Positions 8,351-63,632 of a stretch of 64,000 bases of DNA are shown here, one piece after another; within the stretch, counting starts at the first letter, position 1, and each line of letters opens with the position of its first letter. Source of the stretch: Candidatus Limnocylindria bacterium. Lineage in GTDB: Bacteria > Chloroflexota > Limnocylindria > P2-11E. The stretch covers positions 149,444 to 213,443 of the forward strand of contig DASYTL010000035.1 in the NCBI GenBank assembly GCA_036002305.1, read 5' to 3'. Below the pieces are notes generated by a model. That model did not search any database. It saw only the letters and a program-made list of their open reading frames with translations, and had not been told where the DNA came from. The position numbers and the translations under genes were made by a program.

Positions 8351-8926
8351 TCAGGTCGCGAAGCGGACGAGGTCCACCAGCAGCTCCGGGCTCACCCGCT
8401 GCGCGCGCCTCAATACTGCGCCGTTCTCATCGAGCACCCGGTAGCCGTTCGCGAGCGGAGTCACGTTGTCGGGGACGATCGTGCGGACCAGATCGCCGTG
8501 CTCGTCGAAGATGAGGTAGCTCGGCGTGTATCGCACCCCGTTCGCGTCGCCGATCGCGCGACCGGCCGGGGTCGGAAGCTCGACGCGAACGAAACGCGCG
8601 GCACCACGCATGCTCGTGGCGGCGAACTTGATGATCTGACGGTTCGCCATGCAGATGAGGCAGTAATTCGAGTAAAGCTCCACGACGACCGGCCTGCCAC
8701 CACGGACGAGCCGCGCGAGGTCCTCCGGCGCCGTGATGTCGGGTGGCCCCGGGCGCAGAGCGAGCCAGACCCCGCCGAGCACGACGAAGTCGATGAGGAC
8801 GGTGGCGATGAGGGCGGGCACCGCCGCCATGCCGACCGGTCCGAGGGTCAGCGAGATCCCGAGGAAGGTCGGCACGACGACGGCGAGCGCGAGGATGAGA
8901 TAGCTGAAATTGTTGAGGGCCCTCAA
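8351..8926 (-). CDS. membrane-anchored thioredoxin-like protein
   Basis: Two N-terminal TM helices, then a thioredoxin fold with a CLIC (CxxC) motif. TTG start overlaps the upstream TGA (TTGA). Confidence 0.65.
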   Translation of the reverse strand: MRALNNFSYLILALAVVVPTFLGISLTLGPVGMAAVPALIATVLIDFVVLGGVWLALRPGPPDITAPEDLARLVRGGRPVVVELYSNYCLICMANRQIIKFAATSMRGAARFVRVELPTPAGRAIGDANGVRYTPSYLIFDEHGDLVRTIVPDNVTPLANGYRVLDENGAVLRRAQRVSPELLVDLVRFAT

Positions 8927-9555
8927 ACTACCGGCGTCCTGAGACGACCCGTCGGCCCTGCGCCGTCTGTCAGGATTGCCTTCGGGACCGGGCTGAATAG
9001 GCGGTCCGCGACTATGCCTTCCCACCAATTCACGTATCGCCAGTTCTGGATCGTCAGCGCCGCGAAGAGGACCGCCGTGAGGATATACAAGAGCCAGAAC
9101 CGTGGGCCGAAGCTGGCTAGTCCAAGCGCGGATGCGGCAGTGATCCCCATGATCCCAAGGACGGCCGCGAGGACGACGCCAGCTGAGCTGTGAACGAAGA
9201 GCCAGAGCCTTGTTGCTCGCTCCCTATATGGATCGTCCGCAACCCGGTATGTCCATAATTCCCACTCTTCCCACAGGCGCGACCTGGTGGGTGCGTCGAT
9301 TCCGATAGCCTCGAGACGCGCACGCACGACTTGGAGCGGTCGTCTTTGTGGCGATTCGTAAACGCGGAAGAGATTGAAGAGTAGCCAGTAGAGCTGGTGC
9401 ACCGCGTAACCAGCGACCAAGACCGCAACACCCGCCAGCGCGGCGTCGACGCCTGTGAAGCCACTCATCCCGCCTCCAGGCACCACCCGCAGGAGCGGCA
9501 GAACCACAAGGAAGCCGGGGACGAGGTACCGAAGGATGACCTCCACGCCGAACAT
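8923..9555 (-). CDS. hypothetical polytopic membrane protein
   Basis: 4-5 predicted TM helices; no recognisable family; locally lower GC (roughly 55-60% by eye). Confidence 0.5.
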   Translation of the reverse strand: MFGVEVILRYLVPGFLVVLPLLRVVPGGGMSGFTGVDAALAGVAVLVAGYAVHQLYWLLFNLFRVYESPQRRPLQVVRARLEAIGIDAPTRSRLWEEWELWTYRVADDPYRERATRLWLFVHSSAGVVLAAVLGIMGITAASALGLASFGPRFWLLYILTAVLFAALTIQNWRYVNWWEGIVADRLFSPVPKAILTDGAGPTGRLRTPVV

Positions 9556-9577
9556 CAACGGGCCCTTCCAGCGGCCT

Positions 9578-10966
9578 TCAACGGTGGAACTCCTCGTGGA
9601 TCAGCTTCACCGCCTTCTCGCGGTCCCGCTCCATGACCACGAGCGAGATGTTGAGCTCGCTCGAGCCCTGCGCGATGGCGACCACGTTCACGCCGGCCTT
9701 CCCGAGAGCGGTGAAGACGCGCGCCGCGACCCCGGGCGTGCCGCGCATCCCCTCCCCCACCGCGGCCACGATGGCCACCGGCCGCTCGACGTCGATCTTC
9801 TCGACGTCGTGGCGGCGCAGCTCCGCGTTGAACATCTTCTCGAGCGCGGCCTTGAGGCGATCGGTCGCATCCTCCGGCACGACGAGGCAGATCGAGTTCT
9901 CGCTCGAGGACTGGCTGATCATCATCACCGAGACGCGCTCCGCGGCCGCAGTGTCGAAGACCCGCGCGGCGAAGCCCGGCACGCCACTCATGCCCGCGCC
10001 CTGCACGGTGATGAGGCCGAGCCCCCCGAGCGAGGTGGTCGCCTTCACCACGCTGCCGTCCTTCCGCGCCTCACCCGTGATCGTCGTGCCCGCGTCGGAG
10101 GGCGCGAACGTGTTCAGGATGCGCACCGGTATTCCCGCCTCGATGGCCGGCAGCACGGTCCGCGGATGGATGACCTTCGCGCCGAAGTAGCTCAGCTCGG
10201 CGGCCTCGGCGTACGACATCGTGGCGAGCGGTTTCGCCCCCTTCACGATGCGCGGGTCGGCGCTCATCACGCCGCTCACGTCCGTGTAGATGCGCAGGTC
10301 GTCGGCTCCCGTCGCCGCGGCCAGCACGGCGGCGGAGTAGTCGGAGCCGCCGCGCCCCAGCGTCGTCGTGACCCCGTCGACGGTCGAGCCAATGAACCCG
10401 GTCACCACTGGGACCACGCCGTAATCGAGGCGTGAGTCGAGCTCCTTGCTGGCCCGAGCCCGCGTCTCGTCGACGACGGGGTTCGCGTGGCCGAAGGCGT
10501 CATCGGTGATGAGGAGGCCCTCCGTCGAGAGCGCCTCGGCCTTCGTCCCCTTGTGGTTCAGCACGGCGGCCACGATCGGTGCGGAAATGCGTTCGCCGTA
10601 CGACGTGATCGCGTCGAGGGTGCGCGCGGTGCACTCGCGGAGGATCGCGACGCTCTGGAGCAGCGCGTCGGTCCGCTCCGTGAGGTCGGCGATCTCCTTG
10701 AGGACGTCGGCCGACTCGAAGCCGAGCGCGTCGGCCGCGAGGTTCTTGTGCGCCGCCGCGAGCCCGAGCAGGGCTTCCTGCGCGGCCTGGGCGTCTCCCG
10801 CCTCGGACGCACGCGCCGCGGCGATGAGCGCGTCAGTCGTGCCGGCGGTCGCCGACACCACCACGATGCGCTCGCCCTTGGTCGCCTTGACGATCTCCGC
10901 GACCCGGAGGAGCGCGGCCGGCGACGCGACGGACGTTCCGCCGAACTTGAGGACCGTCCGGGTCAC
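9578..10966 (-). CDS. lysC: aspartate kinase (monofunctional, C-terminal ACT domains)
   Basis: VLKFGGTSV, VVVSATAGTTD, RGGSDYSA. GTG start overlaps the hom stop (GTGA). Confidence 0.92.
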   Translation of the reverse strand: MTRTVLKFGGTSVASPAALLRVAEIVKATKGERIVVVSATAGTTDALIAAARASEAGDAQAAQEALLGLAAAHKNLAADALGFESADVLKEIADLTERTDALLQSVAILRECTARTLDAITSYGERISAPIVAAVLNHKGTKAEALSTEGLLITDDAFGHANPVVDETRARASKELDSRLDYGVVPVVTGFIGSTVDGVTTTLGRGGSDYSAAVLAAATGADDLRIYTDVSGVMSADPRIVKGAKPLATMSYAEAAELSYFGAKVIHPRTVLPAIEAGIPVRILNTFAPSDAGTTITGEARKDGSVVKATTSLGGLGLITVQGAGMSGVPGFAARVFDTAAAERVSVMMISQSSSENSICLVVPEDATDRLKAALEKMFNAELRRHDVEKIDVERPVAIVAAVGEGMRGTPGVAARVFTALGKAGVNVVAIAQGSSELNISLVVMERDREKAVKLIHEEFHR

Positions 10967-11925
10967 GCGCTCCTCCGCGCGATCGCGATCACGTCGCCGA
11001 GTATCGCGGACGCTGTGGCCTCGCCCCCCGCGCCCGGGCCGCTCCAGGTGAGCTTTGGCACGAGGTCGCTCTCGAGCGTGATCACGTTCGTCGGACCCGT
11101 GGCCCTGCCCTCGAGCGAATCCGCGGGCACCTCCTCGGGACCGACGCGCGCCTTCGTGGCGCGCTCGCCGAAGTCCGCGACGGCGAGGTAGCGCACGCGC
11201 GCGCCACGCGCCGACGCGCCGGTCAGCTCCGCGGCCGAGACGCCCCGCAGGCTCGCGCGCCGCACGTTGTCGGGGTGGTAATGGCGGCCCTCGAGGATCG
11301 AGACGAGGATCGCGAGCTTGTAGGCGGCGTCGTGCCCGTCCACGTCGTTCGTCGGGTCCGGTTCGGCATATCCGGCGGCCATGGCCTCGGCGAGGGCCTC
11401 GTCGAAGGACATACCGGTCTCCATCCGCGAGCAGATGTACGTCGTCGTGCCGTTCAGCAGGCCGCGCAGCACGCGCGGCCGTACCGCGCCGAGCCCGCGC
11501 ATGCCCGCGATCACCGGGACCGCCGCCGCGACCGCCGCCTCGAAGCGCAGCTCGCGCTTCGCCAGGCGGGCTCTTTCGTGCAGCGGGTTCCATTCCTTGG
11601 CGACGAGCTCCTTGTTCGCGGTCACCACGTGCTTGCCGCGGTCGAACGACTCGAGCACGAGCTCGCGTGCGGGATCGGTGCCGCCGATAACCTCGACCAC
11701 GACCGTGATCTCGGGGTCGTCGAGGATCGCGTGCGGATCCGCGGTGACCGGCACGTCGCCCGCGTTCCGTGCGCGTGTCGGGTCGCGCACCGCGGCGGCG
11801 ACGAGCTTCACGGGCCGGCCGGCCGCGGCGTCGATGCGGCGCGACCGGTCCGCGAAGGTCCGCGCGACCGCGGACCCGACGGTGCCGAGGCCGAGGAGCC
11901 CGACTCCGAGCGGTTTCGCGCTCAT
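10963..11925 (-). CDS. hom: homoserine dehydrogenase (short form, no ACT domain)
   Basis: GVGLLGLGTVGSAV, VVTANKEL, AAVAAAVPVI, NGTTTYI, DVDGHDAAYKLAIL. Confidence 0.9.
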   Translation of the reverse strand: MSAKPLGVGLLGLGTVGSAVARTFADRSRRIDAAAGRPVKLVAAAVRDPTRARNAGDVPVTADPHAILDDPEITVVVEVIGGTDPARELVLESFDRGKHVVTANKELVAKEWNPLHERARLAKRELRFEAAVAAAVPVIAGMRGLGAVRPRVLRGLLNGTTTYICSRMETGMSFDEALAEAMAAGYAEPDPTNDVDGHDAAYKLAILVSILEGRHYHPDNVRRASLRGVSAAELTGASARGARVRYLAVADFGERATKARVGPEEVPADSLEGRATGPTNVITLESDLVPKLTWSGPGAGGEATASAILGDVIAIARRSA

Positions 11926-12698
11926 CCGAGCGGCTTGCCCCACACGACGACGCCCACGACATCGAGCCGGATCCGACCGATCCCGTGCTGTTCGAACAGC
12001 GTCCGCGCGTCTGCCTCGAACCGGTCGCGCGTGTCCTTGAGCGTGGCGCGCGAGAGCGAGCTCGTGCTGGCGAGCATCGCGAGGTACTCGTCGACCGACG
12101 GCTCGTATGCGACCGGAGCCGCGCAATGCTTCCCCACCTTCTCGAAGTGACCGCCCTCCTCGAGCGACCTCAGGCGACCGTCGAAGTCCTCGTGGTGTTT
12201 TATCGGTGAATAGCGCTGGATCAGCGAAACGATGGCCGTTCGCCACTCCTCCTCCGGAAGGACCCATTCGAGCTCCGCGATCGCGAGGAAAGCGTCCGTG
12301 GCCAGCGCGTCCCGGAACCGAGGCATGACCATGGAAGGATCCATCCAGTGGATGCTCGCGCCGGTCGTGATCAGCCCGTAGGGCGGCCGGAGCGGCGCGT
12401 CCTCGGCTCGGCCGACGATCCACCGGATGGCGGGATCGTCCCCGCCGGGAAGGGCGCGCGCTTCCGCGATCTTCGCCTCCGACGGGTCGAGCGCGTCCAC
12501 CCGTTTCGCGAACGCGGCCAGCCCGCGCGTCAGCGCGCCGGTGCCGCAGCCGGCATCGAGAACGACGCGCGGCGCGACCAGGAGCGGCTCGAGCACCTGG
12601 AAGATCTCGCGGGGGTATGGGGGGCGGTGGCGATAGTTCCGCACGACATCCTCGTGCGCGAACGCCGCGCCGAGCTCGCGCGCGAAGGTCTTCCTCAA
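11922..12698 (-). CDS. class I SAM-dependent methyltransferase
   Basis: VLDAGCGTGALT motif I. TTG start overlaps the cinA-like stop (TTGA); its stop overlaps the hom ATG (ATGA). Confidence 0.75.
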   Translation of the reverse strand: MRKTFARELGAAFAHEDVVRNYRHRPPYPREIFQVLEPLLVAPRVVLDAGCGTGALTRGLAAFAKRVDALDPSEAKIAEARALPGGDDPAIRWIVGRAEDAPLRPPYGLITTGASIHWMDPSMVMPRFRDALATDAFLAIAELEWVLPEEEWRTAIVSLIQRYSPIKHHEDFDGRLRSLEEGGHFEKVGKHCAAPVAYEPSVDEYLAMLASTSSLSRATLKDTRDRFEADARTLFEQHGIGRIRLDVVGVVVWGKPLG

Positions 12699-13153
12699 CC
12701 GATCGCCCTTTCGAGCAGATCGAGAGCGGCGCCCACCGATGCGAGGCGGTTGCCCTCGCGGTCGAACGGCCAGTCGAACTTCTTCACGGCGGAGAAGTCG
12801 TCGCTGTCGACGGCCACGTAGGTCAGGCCAACCGCCTTGCCCGGCGTCGAGCCGCCGGGCCCCGCGATCCCGGTCACGCCCAGGCCGACCTTCGCACCGA
12901 GCCGAGCACGCGACCCGCGCGCCAGCGCGCCGGCGACGACCGACGACACGGCGCCGTGCCCGTGGATGAGGTCCGGCGCGACGTCGGCGAAGATCGTCTT
13001 CGCCTCGTTCGAGTACACGACGGCGCCGCCCAGGAACTGCGCGCTCGCCCCGCCCTGGGCGGTGAGGACGGCGGCGAGGAGGCCGCCGGTGCATGACTCG
13101 GCCGCGGCCACGGTGAGCTTGCGACGGACGAGGCGCGCCTGGATCGACTTCAT
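12695..13153 (-). CDS. CinA C-terminal domain / nicotinamide-nucleotide amidase (PncC-like)
   Basis: LTVAAAESCTGGLLAA, AVVYSNEAK, GVTGIAGPGG. Confidence 0.85.
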   Translation of the reverse strand: MKSIQARLVRRKLTVAAAESCTGGLLAAVLTAQGGASAQFLGGAVVYSNEAKTIFADVAPDLIHGHGAVSSVVAGALARGSRARLGAKVGLGVTGIAGPGGSTPGKAVGLTYVAVDSDDFSAVKKFDWPFDREGNRLASVGAALDLLERAIG

Positions 13154-13166
13154 GCGCTCCTCGAGC

Positions 13167-13700
13167 TCAGGCAGCGTGGGCGGTCGTTCTTGCGGCACGG
13201 AGCATGAGTCTGACGCCCGAGACGACGGTGAGCGCGACGGCGGCCAGGAGCAGGCCTTGCGCCGCGAATCCCACATCGGCCGATCGCGACGCGGCGGCCA
13301 CGATTCCCGTCGCGGCAGCGACGACCTGAAGGACGGTCTTCGCCTTGCCGTCAGCCGTCGCAGGGAGTGGGTGCCGTGAGCGGGCGCGCAGGGAGACCGC
13401 AGCGAGCTCGCGGCCGATGATCACCGCGAGCGCCCAGGGCGGAACCAGCCCGCGCACGGCGAGTGCGCTCAGGGTGCCGACGATCAGGATCTTGTCGGCG
13501 AGGGGATCGAGGCTCGCGCCGAGCGCGGTCACCTGGCCGCGCGCACGCGCCAGGCGCCCGTCAATGACGTCGGAGAGCACCGCGACGGCGAAGAGGCCCA
13601 GGGCGAGCGTGTCGGTCTCGGGCGTCGCGATCACGAGCAGCACACAGACCGGGAACGTAGCGACGGCGCGACCGACGGCGATGAGGATCGGGAGGTTCAC
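13167..13700 (-). CDS. pgsA: CDP-diacylglycerol--glycerol-3-phosphate 3-phosphatidyltransferase
   Basis: CDP-alcohol phosphatidyltransferase motif DVIDGRLAR...G...DPLADK. GTG start overlaps the rodZ stop (GTGA). Confidence 0.85.
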   Translation of the reverse strand: MNLPILIAVGRAVATFPVCVLLVIATPETDTLALGLFAVAVLSDVIDGRLARARGQVTALGASLDPLADKILIVGTLSALAVRGLVPPWALAVIIGRELAAVSLRARSRHPLPATADGKAKTVLQVVAAATGIVAAASRSADVGFAAQGLLLAAVALTVVSGVRLMLRAARTTAHAA

Positions 13701-14872
13701 TGCGCGGTGAAAACGCGCTCCACGACCTCCCCCTGGCGCCCCAGGCTCGCGATGAGCTGCCCGTTGTAAATGACCTGCGTCACGGCGGCGTTGCCGGTGC
13801 GAATGCGGACCTCTTTGCCCGTGAAATTCGCGGTCTCGCCGTCCTTGTACACGCGGCCCGTTTCCGCGATGTCCGTTCCGTCCACGGTGGCGAGGAGCCA
13901 TGTGTCCCCGCCGCGCACGAAGACGTTGACGACGGCCGCGGTGTAGGTGACGTTCACGTTGCGGGTCTCCTCCACCGTGCCGCCCGCGCTGTTGCGCGCG
14001 ACGACGCGGAACGAGTGCGGCCCCGCAGGGAGGTAGTACCGCGCCTGGAACGTCCCGTCCCCGCTCACGCTGAGAGGGGTGTTGTTGACCTGCACGTTCG
14101 TGACGCTGCGATCGACCCTGCCGCTCAGCTGCACGTACACGTTCGTGAGCGTCGCCCCGTTTGCCGGCTGGTCGACGGCCAGGATCGGAGGGTTCGCGAG
14201 CCCGACCGTCGGCGCCTGGTACCGCACCGTCCGAGTCACGCGGTTCGTCTTGCCCGCCGCGTCCAGGACGTCGACCTCGACGTGGTTGGAGCCCGGCTTG
14301 AGCGCGACCGTGGTCGCGAAGCTGCCGTCCGCGCCGACATGGATGTCGCCGAAGGTGTCGGGGCCGGGGAATACCCGTACGGTGACTCGCCCGTCCGGGA
14401 CGGTGATGCCACGAACGAGCAGGTCCTGGCTGGCCGCGAACGTGTCGTTCGCGGGGTCGAGCACCTCGAGGCGCGGGAGCGTCGCGAACGTCGTGAACTG
14501 ATAGACGAGGTAGCCGAGGAACAGCCCGACGGCCGCGATGACGAACACCGGGACGAAGACCACCGGCCGGAAGATGAGGCTGCGCCGCACCACCGGCCGG
14601 TACGGCCGGAACGTCCGGGATTGCTGCGGCTCGGGCGGTCCGACGCGCTCGCGCTGGTAGAGCACGACGAGCTCGTCTGTCTCGAGGTCGAGGTACTCGG
14701 CGTAGTTGCGCAGAAACCCGCGCGTGTAGACGGTGCCGGGGAGCGACTGATAGTCGCCGTCCTCGAGGGCCTTGAGGAACTTCTCACGGATCCGCGTGTC
14801 CGCGGCGGCCTGCTCGAGGGTGATGCCCTTGCGCTCGCGCTGCGCGCGAAGCTGCTCGCCGAGCGTGCTCAC
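13697..14872 (-). CDS. rodZ: RodZ-like cytoskeleton protein (HTH, TM, Ig-like repeats, DUF4115-like C-terminus)
   Basis: LGEQLRAQRERKGITLEQAAADTRIREKFLKALEDGDY, a single TM helix, and a C-terminal beta-rich domain. Confidence 0.75.
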   Translation of the reverse strand: MSTLGEQLRAQRERKGITLEQAAADTRIREKFLKALEDGDYQSLPGTVYTRGFLRNYAEYLDLETDELVVLYQRERVGPPEPQQSRTFRPYRPVVRRSLIFRPVVFVPVFVIAAVGLFLGYLVYQFTTFATLPRLEVLDPANDTFAASQDLLVRGITVPDGRVTVRVFPGPDTFGDIHVGADGSFATTVALKPGSNHVEVDVLDAAGKTNRVTRTVRYQAPTVGLANPPILAVDQPANGATLTNVYVQLSGRVDRSVTNVQVNNTPLSVSGDGTFQARYYLPAGPHSFRVVARNSAGGTVEETRNVNVTYTAAVVNVFVRGGDTWLLATVDGTDIAETGRVYKDGETANFTGKEVRIRTGNAAVTQVIYNGQLIASLGRQGEVVERVFTAQ

Positions 14873-14873
14873 C

Positions 14874-17114
14874 CTAGTCGGTGTCGCGCGCCATGCCATA
14901 CACCTCGCGCATCTTCCCGGGGCCCTGCGACGGACCGATGACGCCCTGCTGCTCCATCATGTCGATGAGCCGGCCGGCGCGCGCGAAGCCGATCGTCATC
15001 TTGCGCTGCAGCATCGACACCGACGCCTGCCCGGCGCGCTGGACGATGTCGACCGCCTCTTCGTACCGGTCGTCGTCCATCTCGTCCCCGCCGTCGTCGC
15101 GCGCTCGGGCGCGGTCCTTGTCCTCGAGGATCGAGAGGTCGTACCGCGGCTCGCGCTGCTGCTTCCAGTGGCGGGTGACGAGATCGATCTCGGCGTCCGA
15201 GACGAAGGCGCCCTGCGCCCGCACCGGCTTGGCCGAATCCGGCGCGAGCCAGAGCATGTCACCGCGCCCCAGGAGCTTCTCCGCGCCGGTCATGTCGATG
15301 ATCGTGCGTGAATCGACCGCGGAAGCGGTAGCAAACGCGATGCGAGCGGGCACGTTCGCCTTGATCAGCCCGGTGATCACATCGACCGATGGCCGCTGGG
15401 TGCCGAGCACCAGGTGGATGCCCGTGGCGCGCGCCAGCTGGGCGATGCGCGTGATCTGCTTTTCCACCTGGATCGGCGCCTGGAGCATCAGATCCGCGAG
15501 CTCGTCGATGATCAGGACGACGTAGGGCACCCGGTCCGCGCCCGTGTGCTTCTCGTTGTAGGCGGCGATGTTCCGGGCGTTCGCGCGCGCGAAGAGCCGG
15601 TACCGCCGGTCCATCTCGCTCGTCAGCCAGTAGAGGGCGTTCAGGATCTGCGGGGAGTCGTGCATGACCGGGACGACCAGGTGCGGCACACCGTTGAAGC
15701 CCGGGAAGTCGACGCGCTTGAGGTCGCCGATGAGGAGGCGGACGTCGTCCGGCGTCGACTGCAGGAGCAGGCTGGTCAGGATCGCGCCGATGCACACGCT
15801 CTTGCCCGATCCGGTCTGCCCGGCGATGAGGATATGAGGGAGCTTCGCGAGGTCGGTGACGATCGCCGCGCCCGCGACGTCCTTGCCGAGGGCGACCGTG
15901 AGCTTCGAGCCCGAGCCCTTGAACTCGGCGCTCTCCGCGACGTCACGCACCGAGACGAGGCCGATCGCCATGTTCGGGATCTCGATCCCGACCACGCTCT
16001 TCCCCGGGATCGGGGCCTCGATGCGGAGCGTTCGCGCCGCGAGCGTGAGCGCAAGGTCGTCGGCGAGCGCCTCGATCCGCGAGAGCTTCACGCCCGCCGC
16101 GGGCCTGAGCTCGTACCGGGTGACGACCGGTCCGACGCTGACCTCGACGACGCGAGCGCTGATGTCGAAGTTGGCGAGCGTCTCTTCGATGACGCGGGTG
16201 TTGCGCATGACCTCGTCCTTGCCCGAACGCGCCGCAGATCCCTCATCGAGAAGGTCCACTGCCGGGAGCGCCCACGGTGTCTGGGGCGGGTCCGCATGCA
16301 GGACGCCTTCGGCCGCGACCGCGGCTGAGGCCAGCCCGGCAGTGGAGACGGAGAATGGCTCCCGCGGGGCCGACCCAGGCTCAACTTCCGAGGGCCCCCG
16401 CGCGATGGGGATCCGGCCGGAGGCCGGGGGGTCCCCGTCGCGTTGAGAGGGTTTCGGAAGTTGAGCCTGCACACCTGGGACGCGAGAGCGCTGCTCCGGG
16501 AGGTTGATCTTGAGCTGCCGGGCGTCCTCGTCGAGGTCGACGAGGCGGTCGAAGCGGGTGGCGGTTCCGCCGGGGATGAGGGTTCCCGGCTTGAGGCCGC
16601 CGAGCGCTGGGCGCTGGCGCCAGACGGGCGCGAGCAGATCGGCGATGGTCCGGTTCGCCGCCATGACGACGCCCACGAGAAGCAACGCGCCGAGCGCGAT
16701 CGGAGCGCCGATCTGTCCGAAGAGGGCGGCCGCGCCCTTGGCGACCGCGCCTCCGACGTAGCCTCCGGCGACGTCGTCGCGGACGTAATGGCGCGTCAAG
16801 CCGAGCAGCGCGACGACGATGACGAGCCCGCCGAGGATCGGGAGGACGGTCTCACGGCGCACGATCCCGAACCAGAGCTCCAGGGCGACCGCGGCCAGGC
16901 CCAGCGGCACGAGCCACGCGCCCCAGCCCAGGAAGGAGAAGAGCGCCGAACGCCACCACTGGAGGACCGCGCCCTGATCGGTCGCGAACGCGACGGTCGA
17001 GAGGAGCGCGAACGCGAGGACCGCGATCGCCCCGATCTCGTCGCGAATCCGCGGTTCGATCGCCGGTGTCGCTCCTCGCCGTCGTGAGCTCGTGGCCCTC
17101 CGTGCCCCGCTCAA
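14874..17114 (-). CDS. ftsK: DNA translocase FtsK/SpoIIIE
   Basis: N-terminal TM helices, Walker A GQTGSGKS, LIIDELADL, gamma domain ASVSMLQRKMTIGFARAGRLID. Confidence 0.93.
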   Translation of the reverse strand: MSGARRATSSRRRGATPAIEPRIRDEIGAIAVLAFALLSTVAFATDQGAVLQWWRSALFSFLGWGAWLVPLGLAAVALELWFGIVRRETVLPILGGLVIVVALLGLTRHYVRDDVAGGYVGGAVAKGAAALFGQIGAPIALGALLLVGVVMAANRTIADLLAPVWRQRPALGGLKPGTLIPGGTATRFDRLVDLDEDARQLKINLPEQRSRVPGVQAQLPKPSQRDGDPPASGRIPIARGPSEVEPGSAPREPFSVSTAGLASAAVAAEGVLHADPPQTPWALPAVDLLDEGSAARSGKDEVMRNTRVIEETLANFDISARVVEVSVGPVVTRYELRPAAGVKLSRIEALADDLALTLAARTLRIEAPIPGKSVVGIEIPNMAIGLVSVRDVAESAEFKGSGSKLTVALGKDVAGAAIVTDLAKLPHILIAGQTGSGKSVCIGAILTSLLLQSTPDDVRLLIGDLKRVDFPGFNGVPHLVVPVMHDSPQILNALYWLTSEMDRRYRLFARANARNIAAYNEKHTGADRVPYVVLIIDELADLMLQAPIQVEKQITRIAQLARATGIHLVLGTQRPSVDVITGLIKANVPARIAFATASAVDSRTIIDMTGAEKLLGRGDMLWLAPDSAKPVRAQGAFVSDAEIDLVTRHWKQQREPRYDLSILEDKDRARARDDGGDEMDDDRYEEAVDIVQRAGQASVSMLQRKMTIGFARAGRLIDMMEQQGVIGPSQGPGKMREVYGMARDTD

Positions 17115-17199
17115 TCTCGCGGCTCCGCCGCGCAGACACGCTCGAGGCCGGAGGGGTTCGCTCCTCGCGGCAGAGCCGCTCGTCGCTCACATCTCACTT

Positions 17200-18873: not shown

Positions 18874-19492
18874 AGAGCGTTATCTGCTCGGCGGGCTTCT
18901 TCTCCACCTCCGGCTGCTTCGCCGGGGCCGGTGTCGCGAGGAAGAGCGCGAGCGCCGCGAAGTCGGCGTGCAGCGCCTCGCGCAGCGCGGGTTGATGGAG
19001 CGCGGCTGCGGGATGGTAGACGGGAAAGATCACGAGGCCGTCCGCGCTCTTGCGGGGTTTTCCGTGGATCCGCGAGATCGACTCGCCCGGGAAGAACTTC
19101 CCCATCGCGTGGCGCCCGAGGGTGACGATCACGCGGGGCCGGAGGACATCGAGATGGCGGCGCAACCAGATATCGCAGGCCGCGATCTCCTCGGGAAGCG
19201 GGTCGCGATTCTCCGGCGGGCGGTGGCGCACCACGTTCGTGATGAACACCTTCCGGCGGTCGAGCCCGATGCCGGCGAGCAGCTCGTCCAGGAACTGCCC
19301 GGCAGCGCCGACGAATGGCTTGCCCTGAAGGTCCTCGTGGTAGCCGGGCGCCTCACCCAGGAAGAAGATCCCGGACTCGGCCGAGCCATCCCCGGGGACG
19401 GCCTGCCGGGCGCTGCGGTGAAGCGGGCAGGCGGTGCAGGCACGGATCTCGTCGGCGACGAGCCGCAGGTCCGCGTGCGAAGCGTCCCGCAT
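18866..19492 (-). CDS. uracil-DNA glycosylase, family 4
   Basis: CTACPL, GEAPGYHEDLQGKPFVGAAGQFLD, HPAAAL. Confidence 0.88.
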   Translation of the reverse strand: MRDASHADLRLVADEIRACTACPLHRSARQAVPGDGSAESGIFFLGEAPGYHEDLQGKPFVGAAGQFLDELLAGIGLDRRKVFITNVVRHRPPENRDPLPEEIAACDIWLRRHLDVLRPRVIVTLGRHAMGKFFPGESISRIHGKPRKSADGLVIFPVYHPAAALHQPALREALHADFAALALFLATPAPAKQPEVEKKPAEQITLFG

Positions 19493-19500
19493 CGGGCTGA

Positions 19501-21730: not shown

Positions 21731-21733
21731 CCG

Positions 21734-23965: not shown

Positions 23966-23991
23966 GTGCTGTTGTTCTCTCGGGTGCCTAT

Positions 23992-47188: not shown

Positions 47189-47195
47189 GACCCGG

Positions 47196-50070: not shown

Positions 50071-50073
50071 CGG

Positions 50074-50730: not shown

Positions 50731-50808
50731 CCGACTCGCCTCAATGCGTGGCCGGTATCTTGCGAGAACGGTTGGTTGAGCAGGAGCGCGAACAGATGAC
50801 GCTCGGTA

Positions 50809-52089: not shown

Positions 52090-52108
52090 TCGAGAGGGCG
52101 TCGCGTTC

Positions 52109-53521: not shown

Positions 53522-53596
53522 GTGTGATTCGAGGCGGTTTCTGAGACTCGTCTGAGGGCGGCTAGCGTGCCGCGCCATGAACGAGATCAGGGCCGG

Positions 53597-56502: not shown

Positions 56503-57713
56503 CGGAAGCGGATGCGCGCGAAGGTTCGCTTACCGACCCGGACCACGGGCTCGCCCTTGACCGGCACCGAGGTCCCAACGGTCGCCTTCTTGCCGTCGAC
56601 ATGGACGCCGCCCTGCTCGACGGCGCGCCGCGCCTCCCCCTTGCTCGCGCGGAGCCCGGCGAGCACCAGGAGCTCGACGATCGCGATCTCCTTCGCGCCG
56701 TCGACCTTCACCTCGCGGCTCTCGACGTCGCCCGGCGCCTCGCCCTGCGTGTGCACGCGGTCGAACTCGCGCTCGGCTTCCTCCGCCGCCGCGACCGAAT
56801 GGAGCTCGGCGGTGATCGTGCGGGCGAGCTTCCGCTTCGCCTCTCGCGGATGCAGCTCCTTCTGGGCGATCGCGCGCAGCGTCGCCTGCACCTCGCTCAT
56901 CGGGAGCTCCGTCGCCCACTCGAAGTAGTGCGACATCAGCCTGTCCTCGATGCTCATGACCTTGCCGTACACGTCGCTCGGCGGATCGGTGAGCCAGATC
57001 GCGGTCGTCGGCTTCGACTTGCTCATCTTCTCGCCGTCGAGGCCCTCGAGGAGCTGGACGATGAAGACGCTCTGCGCGCGCTGACCGATCTGCTCCTGCA
57101 GCTCGCGGCCGGCGAGGATGTTGAACAGCTGGTCGGTGCCGCCCACCTCGACGTCGGATTCGATGGCCACCGAGTCATAGGCCTGCAGCAACGGGTAGAG
57201 GAGGTCCTTGATCGGGATCGGCGTCTTGCGCTCGAGCCGTTTGCGGAACTCCTCCCGCTGAAGCATCTGCTGGGTTGTGAACCGCGACGCGAGCCGGATC
57301 ACGTCGCCGAGATCGAACTTCCCGAACCACTCGCTCTGCATGACGATGCGGACGTTCTCGCGGGGCACGATCTTGTGGAACTGACCGAGGTAGGTCTGGG
57401 CGTTTTCGAGGACCTTCTCGTGAGACATCGTCGGCCGCGCGTCATCGCGTTCGGTAGGGTCGCCGATCTGGGTCGTCCAGTCGCCGACGATGATCACGAT
57501 CTCGTGGCCCCACCCGGCGAATTTCCTGAGCTTGCGCAGGCCCACGGCGTGGCCGATGTGGAGGTTCGGGTGCGTCGGGTCGAAGCCCTGTTTGATACGG
57601 AGCTGACGCTCGCCGGAGGCGAGCTGCGCCGCGAGGTCCTCTTTCACGATGACCTGGCTCATCGCGCGCGTGAGGAATTCGTCCAACTCGCGTTGTGAAG
57701 GGCGTGCCTGCAC
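56499..57713 (-). CDS. tyrS: tyrosine--tRNA ligase (Thermus-like type with C-terminal S4 domain)
   Basis: HIGH (LHIGHAV), KMSKS, GGTDQ. GTG 57713 preferred because ELDEFLTRA..VIVKEDL aligns with the N-terminus of Thermus-type TyrRS as I recall it. Alternative ATG at 57662. Confidence 0.9.
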   Translation of the reverse strand: MQARPSQRELDEFLTRAMSQVIVKEDLAAQLASGERQLRIKQGFDPTHPNLHIGHAVGLRKLRKFAGWGHEIVIIVGDWTTQIGDPTERDDARPTMSHEKVLENAQTYLGQFHKIVPRENVRIVMQSEWFGKFDLGDVIRLASRFTTQQMLQREEFRKRLERKTPIPIKDLLYPLLQAYDSVAIESDVEVGGTDQLFNILAGRELQEQIGQRAQSVFIVQLLEGLDGEKMSKSKPTTAIWLTDPPSDVYGKVMSIEDRLMSHYFEWATELPMSEVQATLRAIAQKELHPREAKRKLARTITAELHSVAAAEEAEREFDRVHTQGEAPGDVESREVKVDGAKEIAIVELLVLAGLRASKGEARRAVEQGGVHVDGKKATVGTSVPVKGEPVVRVGKRTFARIRFR

Positions 57714-60208
57714 AGGGAAAGATTACCGGGCGTTTCGGAGGGGGCGAAGCCCCCTTTGGCCGCTACCATGGACGTATCGCGCGATCGAAAACGACGCACG
57801 ACCACGCGCTTCGGCGCGGGCTCTATCGCTCGAAGCGGCGCCGGGGCGGCGGAGCGTTCAGCGGTTGGCGCCTCGCGCTGCCGTCGGGGCTGCTGGCCGT
57901 CCTGCTGGCCACCGGAGGGCTGCTCTTGGTCGGCGCGGGAGCCGCAGTCGCCTTCTTCACCGAGGACCTCCCGTCCGCCGTGGACCTCGCGAGGGACCCG
58001 CTGGCCCTGTCGACGAAGGTGTACGACCGCAGCGGCGCGCAGCTGCTCTACCAGTTCTCCGAGGAGAACCGCGAGATCGTGACCTTCGAAGAGGTCCCGC
58101 AGCTGCTCGTCGACGCCACGGTCGCGGCCGAGGACAAGAGCTTCTGGACGAACCCGGGCGTCGACATCCTCGGGATCATGCGCGCCATCTACTCCGACCT
58201 CACCCGGCAGAGCAGCGGCGGGGGCGGCGCCTCGACGATCACGCAGCAGCTGGTGAAGCAGCGCATCGTCGGCGCCGAGGTCAGCATCAAGAGGAAGATC
58301 CGGGAGGCGATCCTCGCGATCGAGGTCACGAACACGTTCTCGAAGCAGCAGATCCTCGAGCTCTACTTCAACCAGATCTACTACGGGAACCAGGCGTACG
58401 GAGTGAAGGCCGCGGCGCAGACGTACTTCGGGAAGTCCGACCTGTCGAAGCTCACGCTCGCCGAGGCCGCGCTGCTCGCCGGACTGCCGCAGGCGCCTTC
58501 GGTGCTCGACCCGACCAAGGCCGAGAACCTCGACCGCGCGGCTGAGCGCCGCGCGTACGTGCTCGATCAGATGCTCGACACCAACACGATCACCCAGAAG
58601 GAGGCCGACGCCGCCAACGCCGAGCCGATCAAGGTCACAGGTCCTCGGGTCGTGACGATCCAGGCTCCCCACTTCGTCTTCCAGGTGCGCAACCAGCTGA
58701 GCCAGATCCTCGGCGGCGACGAGGCGGCGGTGTCGCGCGGCGGCTACCGCGTCGTGACGACGCTCGACACCAAGAAGCAGGAGATCGGCGAGCGCCAGGT
58801 GCGCGAATGGGTCGAGCTGCTGCACAGCCGCAACGTGTGGAACGCGGCCCTCGTCTCCATCGATCCGCGGAGCGGCGAGATCCTCGCCTACGTGGGTTCG
58901 GTCGACTACAACAACCGCGAGGATCCCCGCGTCCAGGGCCAGTTCGACGTCGCCGGCATCGGCCTTCGGCAGCCGGGATCGTCGTTCAAGATGTTCAACT
59001 ACGTCACGGCCCTCAAGAAGGGCGCGACCGCGGCGACGGTCGTCGTCGACGCGCGAACGGACTTCACCGGCAGGGCCGACCCGACGCGCATGAGCCCGGC
59101 GCTCTGCGGCTATTGCCCCGAGAACGCGGACCTGCAGTACCACGGGCCGGTCACGATGCGGCAGGCCATCCGCGAGTCGCGCAACGTGCCCGCGGTGCGG
59201 TTCCTGGCCGAGTACTCGGGCATCGAGGACACGATTCAGACGGCGCACGACCTGGGCATCACGACCGAGATCGATCCGTCGAAGGTCGGCCTTTCGCTCA
59301 CGCTCGGCGCGCGGGAGGTGCACCTCGTCGACATGACCAGCGCCTACGGCGTGCTCGCGAACATGGGCGTCCGCGTGGTGCCGACGTACATCCTCAAGGT
59401 GGAGGACGCGCGCGGGAGAGTCGTCTGGGAGCACAAGGACTACGAGGCGAAGCGCGTTCTCGACCCGGGGATCGCGTGGGTGATGAACGACATCCTGAAG
59501 GACACCACGCAGCCGACGCGCAGCTACGTCTTCGGTGCGTGGACGAACATCGGCCGCGTCGCCGCGCTCAAGACGGGCACGACCGACAACCTGAAGGACG
59601 TCTACTCGGTCGGCTACGTCCCGACGCTCGTCACCGGGGTCTGGATGGGCAATTCGAACGGCGATCCCATGAGCTCGCGCGACTTCTCGAGCGCGATGGG
59701 CCCCGGGCAGCTGTGGCGCGACTACATGACGGAAGCGCTCGCGGACACGCCGGCGTCCGACTGGGCCCGGCCGTCGAACGTCGTGAGCGCGACCGTGGTC
59801 GCGGCGCCCGGGGCGTTCGGCGGCTACGGCTCGGGCCTCGTGCCCTCGAGCCTCTCCCCCTTCTCTTCGACCGAGTGGTTCATCAAGGGGACCGAGCCGG
59901 CGAGGGCGGACGACTGGTTCGTCGCGGGCTGCGTGGCGCCGGATGGGACGACGAAGGTCGCGATGAAGATCCAGGATCCGCGAGCGCCCGCCATGTGGCA
60001 GCGCTACACCGACCAATGGGTGCGCGACGCCATCGTCGGCCGGCACACCTACAACCGCTACACGTGGAGCCTCGTGAGCCCGGATCCCTGCCCGACGCCG
60101 ACGCCGACGCCCGTCCCGACGCCACGTCCGACCCCGACCGCCACTCCGGCGCGCACGTTCCCGCTGCCGTTCCCGACGCCCACCCCGACCCCGACCAAGA
60201 AGCCGTAG
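57695..60208 (+). CDS. class A penicillin-binding protein (GT51 transglycosylase plus transpeptidase)
   Basis: EDKSFWTNPGVD, RKIREA, SSFK, SRN, KTGTT, with a Pro/Thr-rich C-terminal tail. Start uncertain: GTG 57695 or 57704 would overlap the divergent tyrS 5' end. Confidence 0.9.
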   Translation: MKGVPAQGKITGRFGGGEAPFGRYHGRIARSKTTHDHALRRGLYRSKRRRGGGAFSGWRLALPSGLLAVLLATGGLLLVGAGAAVAFFTEDLPSAVDLARDPLALSTKVYDRSGAQLLYQFSEENREIVTFEEVPQLLVDATVAAEDKSFWTNPGVDILGIMRAIYSDLTRQSSGGGGASTITQQLVKQRIVGAEVSIKRKIREAILAIEVTNTFSKQQILELYFNQIYYGNQAYGVKAAAQTYFGKSDLSKLTLAEAALLAGLPQAPSVLDPTKAENLDRAAERRAYVLDQMLDTNTITQKEADAANAEPIKVTGPRVVTIQAPHFVFQVRNQLSQILGGDEAAVSRGGYRVVTTLDTKKQEIGERQVREWVELLHSRNVWNAALVSIDPRSGEILAYVGSVDYNNREDPRVQGQFDVAGIGLRQPGSSFKMFNYVTALKKGATAATVVVDARTDFTGRADPTRMSPALCGYCPENADLQYHGPVTMRQAIRESRNVPAVRFLAEYSGIEDTIQTAHDLGITTEIDPSKVGLSLTLGAREVHLVDMTSAYGVLANMGVRVVPTYILKVEDARGRVVWEHKDYEAKRVLDPGIAWVMNDILKDTTQPTRSYVFGAWTNIGRVAALKTGTTDNLKDVYSVGYVPTLVTGVWMGNSNGDPMSSRDFSSAMGPGQLWRDYMTEALADTPASDWARPSNVVSATVVAAPGAFGGYGSGLVPSSLSPFSSTEWFIKGTEPARADDWFVAGCVAPDGTTKVAMKIQDPRAPAMWQRYTDQWVRDAIVGRHTYNRYTWSLVSPDPCPTPTPTPVPTPRPTPTATPARTFPLPFPTPTPTPTKKP

Positions 60209-60213
60209 GCCGC

Positions 60214-60672
60214 GTGCCCGAGGGCCCGGCGGTCGGCGCGATCGTCGCCTGCGTCGACGCGTCGGGCAGGGTCCTCGTCGTGAAGCAGACCAGTGGCCCG
60301 TTCGCGGGCGCGTGGCTACTCCCCGGCGGCACGGTCGAGCGCGACGAGCCGTTGGAGGACGGCGCGCGCCGCGAGCTCGCTGAAGAGACCGGGTATCGCG
60401 TCGCCGAGCTTCGGGCAGTCGCGCTTTACGAGGTCCGCATCAGGCCGCCGGGCGCCTTCCACATCCTGCTGCACATGTACCGCGGCGGTGGCGTCGAGGG
60501 GACGCCCCGGCCGGAAGCGGGCGGCGAGGTGCGCTGGACGCTCCCGCACGATTTCGTGCTCCACCCGAGCATGGCGGTGCAGCTCGTCGACCTCGGCCTC
60601 ATCGATCGCGACCGCGCCGGGCTCCTCCGCGATCTCGCGCGCATCGGCGTCGAGATGCGCAGGGTGTCCTAG
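60214..60672 (+). CDS. NUDIX hydrolase
   Basis: Nudix box GGTVERDEPLEDGARRELAEETG. Confidence 0.85.
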   Translation: MPEGPAVGAIVACVDASGRVLVVKQTSGPFAGAWLLPGGTVERDEPLEDGARRELAEETGYRVAELRAVALYEVRIRPPGAFHILLHMYRGGGVEGTPRPEAGGEVRWTLPHDFVLHPSMAVQLVDLGLIDRDRAGLLRDLARIGVEMRRVS

Positions 60673-62982
60673 CTAGAGCCGGACGATCGTCGCGCCCTCG
60701 CCGCCCTCGGCTGGACCCGCGGGCTGGTGCTCCCGCACGAGCGGATGCTCGGCGAGCGCCGCGCGGATCGCCGCGCGCAGCGCGCCGGTCCCCTTGCCGT
60801 GGACGATGCGGAGCCGCTCGACGCCCGCGACCGCCGCGTCGTTCAGATAGCGGTCGAGTACGGCGAGCGCCTCGTCCGCGCGCGCGCCGCGAAGGTCGAG
60901 CTGCAGCGGAACGCTCGGCGCCGATCCGCGGACGACGGGACGATCCGAGCGCGGCGTCGCGTCCGACTCGGGCGCGGGGCGAAGCTGCGCCGCCGGCACG
61001 CGCAGGCGCAGCGCGCCCGCGGCGACGTCGGCCATGCCGCGGTCGTCGATCGCGAGCAGCGTGCCGGGCTCGGCCACGCCCTCGACGTGCACCAGCGCGC
61101 CGACCGCGATCGGGACGGTCGGAGGCGGCGGGCCCGCGGGCGCGGCCGCGGCCCGAGCCGACTCGGCCTCAGCGAGCGCGGCGCGTGCCTCGTCCACGAG
61201 GTTCCGCTTCGCCGCGCGATCGCGCGCCTCCTCGGCCTGGCGCAGCGCGCGCCGTGCCTGCAGGAGGAGCTCGTCGGCCTCCGCACGCGCCGTGCGGAGG
61301 GCGCGCTGGGCATCGTCCCTCAGCCGGTCGGCCTTCCGAGCGGCCTCGGCGGTGACCCGTGCGGCGTCCGCCGCGGCGACGCGTGCTTCCTCGAGCGCGG
61401 TGCTGAGCTCGGTCCGCTCCCGCTCGGCCTCGAGCAGCGTGCGCTCGAGCGAGCGGTGCAGCTCGGAGAGGTGCCGGTCGGCGCGACCGAGCACGCTCCG
61501 GTCGAGCCCGAGACGCTCCGCGATCGCGAACGCGTTCGACGCGCCCGGCAGGCCGATGCGCAGGCGGAACGTCGGCCGCAGCGTTTCCGCGTCGAACTCC
61601 ATGCTCGCGTTCCGCACGCCGGGCGTGTTGAGCGCGAAGGCCTTCAGCTCCGGGTAGTGCGTGGTCGCGGCGACGAGCACGCCCCGCTCGAGGAGTGTCT
61701 CGAGGACGGCCATCGCGAGCGCGGCGCCCTCGTCGGGGTCGGTGCCCGCACCAACCTCGTCGAGCAGCGCGAGATCGCCGCGCTCGGCGCCGGCGAGCGT
61801 CGCGACGACGTTGCGCAGGTGGGACGAGAACGTGGACAGCGACTGCGCGATCGACTGCTCGTCGCCGATGTCGGCGAAGATGCGGCGCACCACGGGCACG
61901 TGGCTCGTCTCCGCGGGTATCGCCAGGCCGGATGCCGCCATGAGCGTGAGCAGTCCGACGGTCTTCAGGGTGACCGTCTTGCCCCCGGTGTTCGGGCCGG
62001 TGATGACCAACACGCGGAAGTCGCCGCCGAGCCGAGCGTCGATCCCGACCACGCTCCCCTGCTCCACGAGGAGCGGATGGCGCGCGTCCACCAGGTCGAG
62101 GATCCCGTCGGCGTTGAGGACGGGACGCGTCGCCTCGAGCGAGTCCGCGTAGAGGGCCTTGGCCAGGATGAGGTCGAGCGCGGCAAGCGCGCCGGTGACC
62201 GCGTCGAGGTCCTCGGCCGACCGCTCGACGCGCCGCGAAAGCTCGTCGAGGATCCGCTCGACCTCCGCGCTCTCGGCGAGCTCGGCCTCGCGGAGCGTGT
62301 TGTTCGCCTCCATGATCTCGAGCGGCTCGATGAAGACGGTCTGCCCGCTGGCGGACTGGTCGTGCACGATCCCCTTCACCGCGGCCCGGTGCTCCGCCTT
62401 GACCGGCACGACGTACCGGCCGCCACGCTGGGTGACGATCGGATCCTGGAGCAGCCGGGCGAGATCAGGAGAGCGCACCAGGCCATCGAGCCGCTGCTGG
62501 AGCCGCGCCTGCGCCGCCCGAAGGTCGGCGCGGAGCGATCCGAGCCGCGCGCTCGCGCGGTCGAGGACCTCACCGGTCGCGCCGATGGCGTTCTCGATCG
62601 CGCTCGCCACGTCGGATGGCGGTCGCGCGAAGCGCGTTCGCGCCGCGAGGGGCGGATGCGGTCGCACGTCCGCGAAGAGGCGCTCGGCGGCGCGCACGGT
62701 GTCCGCGACGGCGATGAGCTGCGCCGGGTCGAGCGCCCCGCCGAGTCGCGCGCGCCGGAGCGGCTCGCGGATGTCGCGCGCGCCGCGCAGCCCCGACGAT
62801 GGGCTCGCTCGCAGCAGGTCCCGCGCCGCCGCGGTCTCGTCCTGAAGCCGCTCGGCTTCGCGAAGATCGGTCGTCGGCGCGAGCGCGCTCGCGAGCTCGC
62901 GACCGGGCGCGAACGATGTCCGCTCGGCGAGGAGCGCGCGGATGGCGGGAAGCTCGAGGCGCGCGAGTGCGCCTTCGTTCAT
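60673..62982 (-). CDS. mutS2: endonuclease MutS2 (MutS domain V ATPase plus C-terminal Smr)
   Basis: ITGPNTGGKTVTLK, LLDEVGAGTDP, Smr domain LDLRGARADEAL...IVHGKGTGALR. ATG overlaps the mpg stop (ATGA). Confidence 0.92.
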   Translation of the reverse strand: MNEGALARLELPAIRALLAERTSFAPGRELASALAPTTDLREAERLQDETAAARDLLRASPSSGLRGARDIREPLRRARLGGALDPAQLIAVADTVRAAERLFADVRPHPPLAARTRFARPPSDVASAIENAIGATGEVLDRASARLGSLRADLRAAQARLQQRLDGLVRSPDLARLLQDPIVTQRGGRYVVPVKAEHRAAVKGIVHDQSASGQTVFIEPLEIMEANNTLREAELAESAEVERILDELSRRVERSAEDLDAVTGALAALDLILAKALYADSLEATRPVLNADGILDLVDARHPLLVEQGSVVGIDARLGGDFRVLVITGPNTGGKTVTLKTVGLLTLMAASGLAIPAETSHVPVVRRIFADIGDEQSIAQSLSTFSSHLRNVVATLAGAERGDLALLDEVGAGTDPDEGAALAMAVLETLLERGVLVAATTHYPELKAFALNTPGVRNASMEFDAETLRPTFRLRIGLPGASNAFAIAERLGLDRSVLGRADRHLSELHRSLERTLLEAERERTELSTALEEARVAAADAARVTAEAARKADRLRDDAQRALRTARAEADELLLQARRALRQAEEARDRAAKRNLVDEARAALAEAESARAAAAPAGPPPPTVPIAVGALVHVEGVAEPGTLLAIDDRGMADVAAGALRLRVPAAQLRPAPESDATPRSDRPVVRGSAPSVPLQLDLRGARADEALAVLDRYLNDAAVAGVERLRIVHGKGTGALRAAIRAALAEHPLVREHQPAGPAEGGEGATIVRL

Positions 62983-63551
62983 GGCCGGGACACACCCGCC
63001 GAGCCGCGGACGGAGAAGCGCCACGGCTTCGTCGTCGTCGCATGTTGGTTGAGGCCGATGCGCGCCGAGCGCACGACGCGTGCGGAGGGCACCGGCGGGG
63101 CGTCCCGCACGGAGAGCGCCGACCGCACGAGGTCCATGTCGCTGTGCGCCGTCGTCAGCCCGAACGCCCGCGTGAGCTTGCCCGGGCCGGCGAGCGCCCG
63201 CGGGTCAAGAGCGATACCCTCGAGCGGCTCGGCGCCGCGCACCAGCACCGCGCCAGCGACGCCGTCGCGCTCGGTCACGACGTTCAAGCAGTGGTACATC
63301 CCGTAGACGAAGTAGACGTAGCTCCTTCCGGGCGGGCCGAACATGGGTGCCGTCCGCGCCGTCAGCCCGCGATAGGCGTGCGAGGCCGGATCCGCCGCGC
63401 CGAGGTAGGCCTCGACCTCGACGAGCCGCGCCGCGCGCCGGCCGGCCGGGCCATCGTAGACGAGCGACTTGCCCAGAAGGTCGCGCGCGACGCGCGCGGT
63501 CGGACGGGCATAGAAGGAGCGAGGGAGGCGGCGGCCAAGACGGACCCCCAG
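62979..63551 (-). CDS. mpg: DNA-3-methyladenine glycosylase (Mpg/AAG family)
   Basis: FYARPTARVARDLLGK, VEVEAYLG..DPASHAY, MFGPPGRSYVYFVYGMYHCLNVV. There is no canonical start upstream of the internal Met, so CTG 63551 (or 63572) is proposed. Confidence 0.85.
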   Translation of the reverse strand: MGVRLGRRLPRSFYARPTARVARDLLGKSLVYDGPAGRRAARLVEVEAYLGAADPASHAYRGLTARTAPMFGPPGRSYVYFVYGMYHCLNVVTERDGVAGAVLVRGAEPLEGIALDPRALAGPGKLTRAFGLTTAHSDMDLVRSALSVRDAPPVPSARVVRSARIGLNQHATTTKPWRFSVRGSAGVSRP

Positions 63552-63632
63552 CGGCGCGGGCGCGGCGCTCAGTGTGCTCGGCTCACGACCGCTGCCGAAC
63601 GTGGTCCCGGAGCGCGACGCTACGCCGGTCGG

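Follow-up and report, generated by a model that had tools for sequence, protein, structure and literature searches.

Near-cognate start codons close to upstream stops are the probable translation starts of several operon-internal genes in a Candidatus Limnocylindria bacterium

What might explain why several well-conserved genes in a 64,000-nucleotide stretch of DNA from a Candidatus Limnocylindria bacterium (hereafter the window) have no ATG, GTG, or TTG at the position where their conserved N-termini require a start codon? The genes are ribF (FAD synthetase/riboflavin kinase), a GT2 glycosyltransferase gene, ruvC, truB, and mpg (3-methyladenine DNA glycosylase), five of the approximately 61 genes that we mapped (~8%), in agreement with a first-pass annotation of the same DNA that had counted at least five; a plausible canonical start was found for each of the remaining mapped genes. 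It is likely that these operon-internal housekeeping genes, mpg with less certainty, are translated from near-cognate codons by local re-initiation of ribosomes, the codons being AUC or CUG in the window and, in certain relatives, AUA. The window has a GC content of ~70%, sits within the 377-kb JGI soil-metagenome contig Ga0376049_0000007, and was mapped with codon-position GC, a self-trained codon log-odds score, and Pfam. Its RibF protein is identical to that of an NCBI metagenome-assembled genome (MAG) labelled Candidatus Limnocylindria bacterium. A homolog search with RibF returned ~100 relatives at 78-88% identity, and syntenic DNA was assembled from exact-protein look-ups together with a metagenome scan using the clade-specific GT87-like protein, giving ~80 loci in total (denoted by L numbers), for which start codons are counted as distinct haplotypes. 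The first-pass annotation had proposed aligning orthologs as a check, and across these syntenic loci the canonical starts of the relatives fall on the same codon.

The ribF gene (37506..38420, minus strand) had been claimed to start at ATC, and this is borne out: its frame opens directly after the TAG stop of the GT87-like gene (38432-38430), and the ATC at 38420-38418, 9 nt past that stop, is the sole near-cognate codon. The first canonical codon is the GTG at 38360, and a start there would delete strand β1 of the adenylyltransferase fold. Full-length RibF orthologs mostly begin with M/V-E/D-A-L-R-D-F, aligned exactly on the window ATC, and the window protein aligns to C. ammoniagenes FADS from residue 19. 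The start codon is ATC in 12 haplotypes, GTG in 11, ATG in 6, and ATA in 2. Haplotypes of the ATC clade share the architecture GAC TAR TCT CGN NNN ATC, in which the NNN triplet takes eight forms and the ATC is unchanged; the ATA clade has a different junction, with the upstream stop out of frame and a spacing of +11 nt. About 20 of the ~100 RibF relatives have been deposited as N-terminally truncated proteins. Initiation at the ATC would give the N-terminal peptide Met-EALRDFTGWP. A scan of GTDB species representatives with nrnA indicated that ribF of distant Chloroflexota starts canonically, and was otherwise unusable for comparing junctions because the relatives found, Chloroflexota, Limnocylindria, and Dormibacteria MAGs, are too distant (best nrnA identity about 40%, none above 42%).

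The GT2 glycosyltransferase gene (21008..21730, minus strand) lies behind pnp, and its proposed ATC start stands up equally well. Position 1 of Pfam PF00535 falls at codon 4 after the pnp TAG (21736-21734), and the only near-cognate codon is the ATC at 21730-21728, 3 nt past that stop. Sixty-four codons precede the first canonical codon, the GTG at 21535, which lies beyond the DDGSSD motif. Among the relatives, GT2 starts with ATC in 7 haplotypes, GTG in 2, ATA in 1, and CTG in 1, behind spacers of 3, 6, or 9 nt that are unrelated in sequence. The peptide expected from the ATC start is Met-LSLVLPAFNEAR.

For ruvC (46697..47191, minus strand), the claimed ATC at 47188-47186, 7 nt past the yebC TAG (47198-47196), is a credible start, the adjacent GTC (47191-47189), 4 nt past the stop, being the alternative. 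The next ATG, at 47158, falls past the catalytic GIDPG, and the sole upstream canonical codon, the GTG at 47317, would require a 122-nt overlap. The sequence V-I-L-G-I-D-P-G aligns with residues 2-9 of E. coli RuvC (1HJR), and truncation to a canonical start removes residues 2-12, including the strand that bears the catalytic aspartate (Asp7 of 1HJR). Ten haplotypes have the Val codon GTG immediately ahead of the conserved ATC, three have GTC, and one has GTA; in L089 and L127 the ruvC frame is closed by stops and holds no canonical start. The expected N-terminal peptide is either Met-LGIDPGTTGMGY or Met-ILGIDPG. Two loci carry a GC-rich inverted-repeat insertion that separates ruvC from the yebC stop, at ~350-435 of L127 (GGGGGGCTCCGCCCCCC) and ~2390-2476 of L141, regions homologous to window 47188-47198. 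When RuvC was compared with PDB using phmmer, residues 101-139 (protein encoded at 46700-47191) gave weak whole-sequence matches to TAL-effector repeat proteins, with no single stretch passing; these look compositional and do not suggest homology.

The truB gene (40001..40774, minus strand) would start at the CTG at 40774-40772, which forms a CTGA overlap with the nrnA stop (40773-40771). The next canonical codon is the GTG at 40693, and a start there deletes SGVLAIDKPEGWTSHDVV. TruB aligns to M. tuberculosis TruB from residue 6, and the truncation would remove the equivalents of residues 6-25 (β1/α1). The heptanucleotide CGC CTG A is invariant across 39 haplotypes, even though the C of the CTG is a synonymous site in nrnA: the last Ala codon of nrnA is GCC in 39/39 haplotypes, when genome usage is GCG 471 vs GCC 316 and neighbouring Ala codons vary. 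The stretch between the CTG and the conserved SGV motif has in-frame lengths of 18, 21, and 24 nt and carries synonymous Pro, Asp, and Gln changes, and typical haplotypes have no canonical codon within it. The GTG that encodes the SGV valine was considered as a start and rejected: GTG, GTC, GTT, and GTA all occur there, so this codon is internal to the gene. The N-terminal peptide expected from the CTG start is Met-STEALLSGVLAIDKPEGW.

The weakest case is mpg (62979..63572, minus strand), which probably also has a near-cognate start. The first-pass annotation had held that mpg has only CTG, and two CTG codons, at 63572-63570 and 63551-63549, are indeed the sole candidates in 40 open codons; they are not within 12 nt of the upstream stop but lie 60 and 81 nt from the permease TAG (63635-63633). 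Position 1 of Pfam PF02245 is at codon 39, the first canonical codon is codon 97, and the conserved core starts at LGRRLPRSFY. The mpg gene of L164 (87% identical) has in common a CTG AGC at -19, which in that locus is 10 nt past the permease stop. In L165-168 (17 contigs) the sole option is ATA, placed at -4 so that it and the permease stop share an ATAG. The long Mpg N-terminus of relatives (M-T-G-S-G-T-R-S) was rejected as evidence for a start, being an out-of-frame reading of the permease tail GDGLRDALDPR.

A sixth candidate, orfX (37064..37509, minus strand), is homologous to a hypothetical protein of 196 aa, and its CTG (37509-37507) forms a CTGA overlap with the ribF stop. The claim that this is a working CTG start did not survive: a tblastn comparison with the L085 protein gives matches in two frames, with ~50 residues missing, and the window copy is probably a decaying pseudogene, so orfX provides no evidence for a working CTG start. 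Most relatives have ATG at the homologous start, in an ATGA overlap with ribF; L126 has GTG and L129 has ATA (in ATAA), and the window CTG at 37509 aligns with the ATG of relatives. What lies between ribF and the NHL-repeat gene (window 37064-37509; L083-L160) varies: a hypothetical membrane protein of 196 aa, a GNAT acetyltransferase of 190 aa, the remains of one or the other, or nothing; the window has a frameshifted, internally deleted version of the 196-aa hypothetical.

Taken across genes, near-cognate codons occupy the position of the orthologs' canonical start in ribF, GT2, orfX, the GNAT gene, and nrnA (L135 and L137). Frames closed by stops and lacking any canonical start were found in 14 of 33 cases for ribF, 9 of 11 for GT2, 8 of 37 for truB, and 2 of 15 for ruvC, and GT2, ribF, and mpg of the window likewise have no canonical codon ahead of the conserved N-terminus. 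For lineages with no canonical start, the ratio of nonsynonymous to synonymous differences per site (pN/pS) in the contested N-termini is 0.285 for GT2 (pS 0.43) and 0.212 for ribF (pS 0.60), and the contested N-terminus of ruvC shows 0 nonsynonymous vs 6 synonymous differences. These comparisons indicate that the segments are under purifying selection and hence translated. Identical start states recur across independent assemblies from JGI, NCBI, ENA, and Logan. Among the controls, genes that have an initiation site of their own (pnp, rpsO, flp, yebC, and a fusA-like gene) and several coupled ones (GT87, ydjC, and ruvA) are canonical in every haplotype, and first-in-operon genes have a non-canonical start in no haplotype. 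Extrapolated tblastn starts for NHL, nusA, and truB were disregarded as artefacts of N-terminal indels. This evidence gives strong support to ATC or CTG initiation in ribF, GT2, and truB, and supports ATC or the adjacent GTC as the start of ruvC. Standard gene callers had been predicted to truncate or miss such genes, and they do: the JGI pipeline shortens truB to 230 aa, ribF to 284 aa, and ruvC to 153 aa, and of orfX it calls just a 61-aa fragment.

How are these starts placed relative to the upstream genes? The first-pass annotation had listed 19 four-nucleotide NTGA stop/start overlaps using all four N, and every one was verified by coordinate and strand. They comprise eight ATGA (11922, 21008, 28151, 31469, 33285, 37064, 41745, and 62979), six GTGA (10963, 13697, 30828, 33893, 34669, and 56499), three TTGA (8923, 12695, and 54847), and two CTGA (40771, nrnA/truB, and 37506, ribF/orfX). 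In the curated map these -4 overlaps account for 19 of the 50 co-directional junctions; 2 others are at -1, and a spacer of 0-12 nt separates the genes at 6, of which 3 use an ATC start. The 17 canonical overlaps (8923..62982), whose flanking genes were identified by Pfam or coding potential, are ordinary, the -4 overlap being the commonest gene arrangement in prokaryotes (PMC10666635). A CTGA by itself was rejected as evidence of a CTG start: 11 genes in the window end in CTGA vs ~17.6 expected from third-position composition, so that the bare tetranucleotide is uninformative. The use of all four N does hold at the level of the clade, in homologous junctions of relatives. At rbfA/nrnA, N is A, G, or C; at ribF/orfX it is A, G, or C, with ATAA in addition; and at ribF/GNAT it is G or C, with CTGA in L097 and L102. 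The nrnA start itself is ATG in 24 haplotypes and GTG in 4, and is CTG, within a CTGA overlap, in L135 and L137. Most haplotypes retain the ATGA overlap of rbfA with nrnA (homologous to window 40771-42098); in four relatives (L083 6256-7629, L084 4197-5570, L117, and L130) the rbfA stop has been lost, leaving an in-frame rbfA-nrnA fusion open reading frame (ORF) of 457 aa.

With mpg set aside, the non-canonical starts of the window lie at -4 (truB), +3 (GT2), +7 (ruvC), and +9 nt (ribF) from the upstream stop. A simple motif scan of positions -18 to -4 found a Shine-Dalgarno (SD)-like motif at 0 of 6 non-canonical vs 29 of 55 canonical starts. Re-initiation is known to be local, at about -8 to +10 nt (PMC10666635), and SD-independent, requiring fMet-tRNA and IF2 and being antagonised by initiation factor 3 (IF3) (PMC2268962). 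The stop-proximal geometry of most sites (-4 to +11 nt), the lack of an SD sequence, and the absence of these starts from first-in-operon genes fit termination-reinitiation. A ribosome that ends the upstream gene would re-initiate locally with fMet-tRNA at the adjacent near-cognate codon, and no SD sequence would be involved. The best non-canonical codons in E. coli, AUA, AUC, AUU, and CUG, reach ~1-2% of AUG (10.1101/063800). A weak codon of this kind could keep enzymes in low demand at a low level, in constant proportion to the product of the upstream gene (PNPase, YebC, or NrnA), a selective rationale that we infer.

Several points weigh against termination-reinitiation at near-cognate codons. 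ATC makes up 98% of Ile codons (311/318), so the invariance of the ATC cannot alone distinguish a start codon from an Ile codon. The ydjC, GT87, and most nrnA genes stay canonical though coupled, and the effect must for that reason be gene-specific. The ruvC genes of L127 and L141 start ~41 nt from the stop, past the hairpin insertion, and that of L141 (ACC GTC CTC GGG) lacks canonical and usual near-cognate starts alike; the window mpg CTGs are also far from the permease stop. In E. coli, IF3 still proofreads during re-initiation (PMC2268962), and coupling alone may consequently not explain the tolerance of AUC.

Could the ATC be no start at all, but an Ile codon within PNPase-GT2 and GT87-RibF fusions produced by stop readthrough? 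The ATC clades do have the upstream stop in frame, always at 9 nt for ribF and at 3, 6, or 9 nt for GT2, and four window cases follow TAG, three of them in frame. However, TAG is a normal stop that ends 21 of 61 genes (34%), relatives have TAA besides TAG, and the junction stop varies among TAG, TAA, and TGA. The upstream stop is in a different frame for the ribF ATA clade, ruvC, truB, and mpg of L165-168, orthologs are separate genes with ATG or GTG at exactly the same codon, and the triplet ahead of the ATC is hypervariable, as expected for an untranslated spacer. A fusion of a membrane glycosyltransferase to a cytosolic FAD synthetase would also be implausible. TAG readthrough or reassignment was accordingly rejected as very improbable, given that TAG is a common terminator, that the identity of the junction stop varies, and that several clades are out of frame. 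It is just as hard to credit that canonical starts lie elsewhere, either far upstream (GTG 47317 for ruvC, GTG 40945 or 40960 for truB) or downstream at GTG or ATG codons that give truncated proteins. Such codons are present in the window, and the JGI and NCBI pipelines pick the downstream ones; but the far-upstream starts are excluded because the relatives' frames are closed by stops without an upstream canonical codon, and the upstream extensions are R/S/T-rich out-of-frame junk. The downstream starts would lose the RuvC catalytic-Asp strand and the first β-strands of RibF and TruB, and the segments so deleted are under purifying selection. Pseudogenes or errors of sequencing or assembly are scarcely conceivable as a general explanation. 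The window orfX is split over two frames with its missing residues, and MAG and metagenome data can have errors, but the same states occur in independent assemblies from many samples, pN/pS values of 0.2-0.3 at pS 0.4-0.6 reveal long-term selection, and catalytic motifs are intact. For ribF, GT2, ruvC, and truB these comparisons largely refute this reading.

A more serious alternative is that start selection is relaxed throughout the lineage, for example through IF3, initiator tRNA, or 16S rRNA, such that AUC, AUA, and CUG are ordinary de novo starts, independent of upstream termination. In its favour, ~8% of window genes are affected vs 0.26% of Listeria core genes (PMC13068326), and some cases are not adjacent to a stop (window mpg at 60-81 nt, ruvC of L127 and L141 at ~41 nt). 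Canonical and non-canonical codons have swapped repeatedly at several junctions, and L141 combines a ribF ATA, a GT2 CTG, and a ruvC without a canonical start. On the other side, no first-in-operon gene is non-canonical in any haplotype, and in most cases the start falls within -4 to +11 nt of a stop, without an SD sequence, so that we regard independence from upstream termination as unlikely. There is a slightly better, though still low, chance that proofreading has been loosened across the clade (IF3, initiator tRNA, or the 16S P-site), making AUC, AUA, CUG, and possibly GUC/GUA routine starts for several percent of genes; a hint of GUC or GUA starts comes from ruvC of the window, L089, L122, L127, and L141. 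Neither infC nor an initiator tRNA gene was found when both were sought in the window and 170 loci. Local re-initiation at near-cognate codons next to the upstream stop is the reading that we prefer.

Fixed near-cognate starts have precedents. The infC gene starts with AUU in many bacteria, and E. coli pcnB starts with AUU. As in those genes and in rnhC of Listeria, a near-cognate codon is conserved here where orthologs have AUG or GUG; the near-cognate codons of infC, pcnB, and rnhC are read by initiator tRNA and lower or regulate expression. Those cases are isolated, a handful in E. coli, whereas here they amount to 5 of ~61 genes in one 64-kb window. In Listeria monocytogenes, 6 of 2,265 core genes (0.26%) have fixed non-canonical starts, including the ATC of rnhC (PMC13068326). 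The genes described here differ from infC, pcnB, and rnhC in being operon-internal and mostly stop-proximal, several without an SD sequence, and in having five codons that interchange at one site, and an autoregulatory logic like that of infC is not evident. The arrangement is reminiscent of termination-reinitiation at trpB-trpA (Huber et al. 2023, PMC10666635) and at M13 geneV-geneVII (PMC2268962), where the genes are likewise co-directional, the start lies at -4 to ~+10 nt, and an SD sequence is not required. The described systems use ATG, GTG, or TTG, and near-cognate codons as conserved natural sites of re-initiation form no part of them; here such codons stand at a putatively coupled position. 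The codons belong to the same class, AUA, AUC, AUU, and CUG, that Hecht et al. (10.1101/063800) measured as reporter leakiness, whereas here natural selection would have made them the starts of essential or housekeeping enzymes. In M. tuberculosis, Ribo-RET did not find CTG, ATT, or ATC enriched at initiation sites (PMC9094748), and our literature search found no report of such starts for Limnocylindria or Chloroflexota. Near-cognate starts and -4 coupling are already known; what is new is the ~8% density in one window, the restriction to stop-proximal positions, the long-term conservation with interchange of ATG, GTG, ATC, ATA, and CTG in a soil clade that is uncultured, and the systematic mis-annotation.

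A natural set of AUC, AUA, and CUG starts at stop-proximal junctions could be viewed as material for testing whether re-initiating ribosomes escape IF3 proofreading, a question that bears on 30S vs 70S re-initiation. With five codons interchanging at one site, the start codon might serve low-demand enzymes as an evolvable expression dial. Prodigal- and PGAP-style callers shorten RibF, RuvC, TruB, GT2, and Mpg in an abundant soil lineage, and of the close RibF relatives in the database about one in six has been deposited without its N-terminus. Such truncation distorts protein families, domain statistics, and the metabolism inferred for Chloroflexota MAGs. If start selection were loosened lineage-wide, current gene callers would be systematically mis-annotating abundant soil bacteria.

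The rest of the map includes asd, ask-hom, pgsA, ftsK, rnj, rpsO-pnp-GT2-ydjC, and a his operon, followed by nusA-ylxR-infB-rbfA-nrnA-truB-GT87-ribF, yebC-ruvC-ruvA, tyrS, mutS2, and mpg. No RNA element came to light at the junctions when the window was scanned with Rfam. ARAGORN called an 88-nt tRNA-Gly(GCC) at 54778-54865 (plus strand), antisense over the ndh/TPR TTGA junction; Rfam shows no tRNA there, and the call is likely to be spurious. Upstream in the TTGA overlap at 8923 stands a 211-aa hydrophobic ORF (8923-9558, minus strand) with no Pfam match, and its GC of 0.62 and third-position GC (GC3) of 0.72 are below those of its surroundings, which might reflect a recent acquisition. At 14874-14899 the 3′ end of ftsK overlaps the start of a rodZ-like gene by 26 nt with the starts chosen, the sole long same-strand overlap in the map, and the rodZ start may be misplaced. 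The 863 nt at 24313-25175, between an ilvA-like stop and the rpsO start, have neither a confident gene nor an Rfam match; relatives instead have a luciferase-like monooxygenase gene upstream of rpsO.

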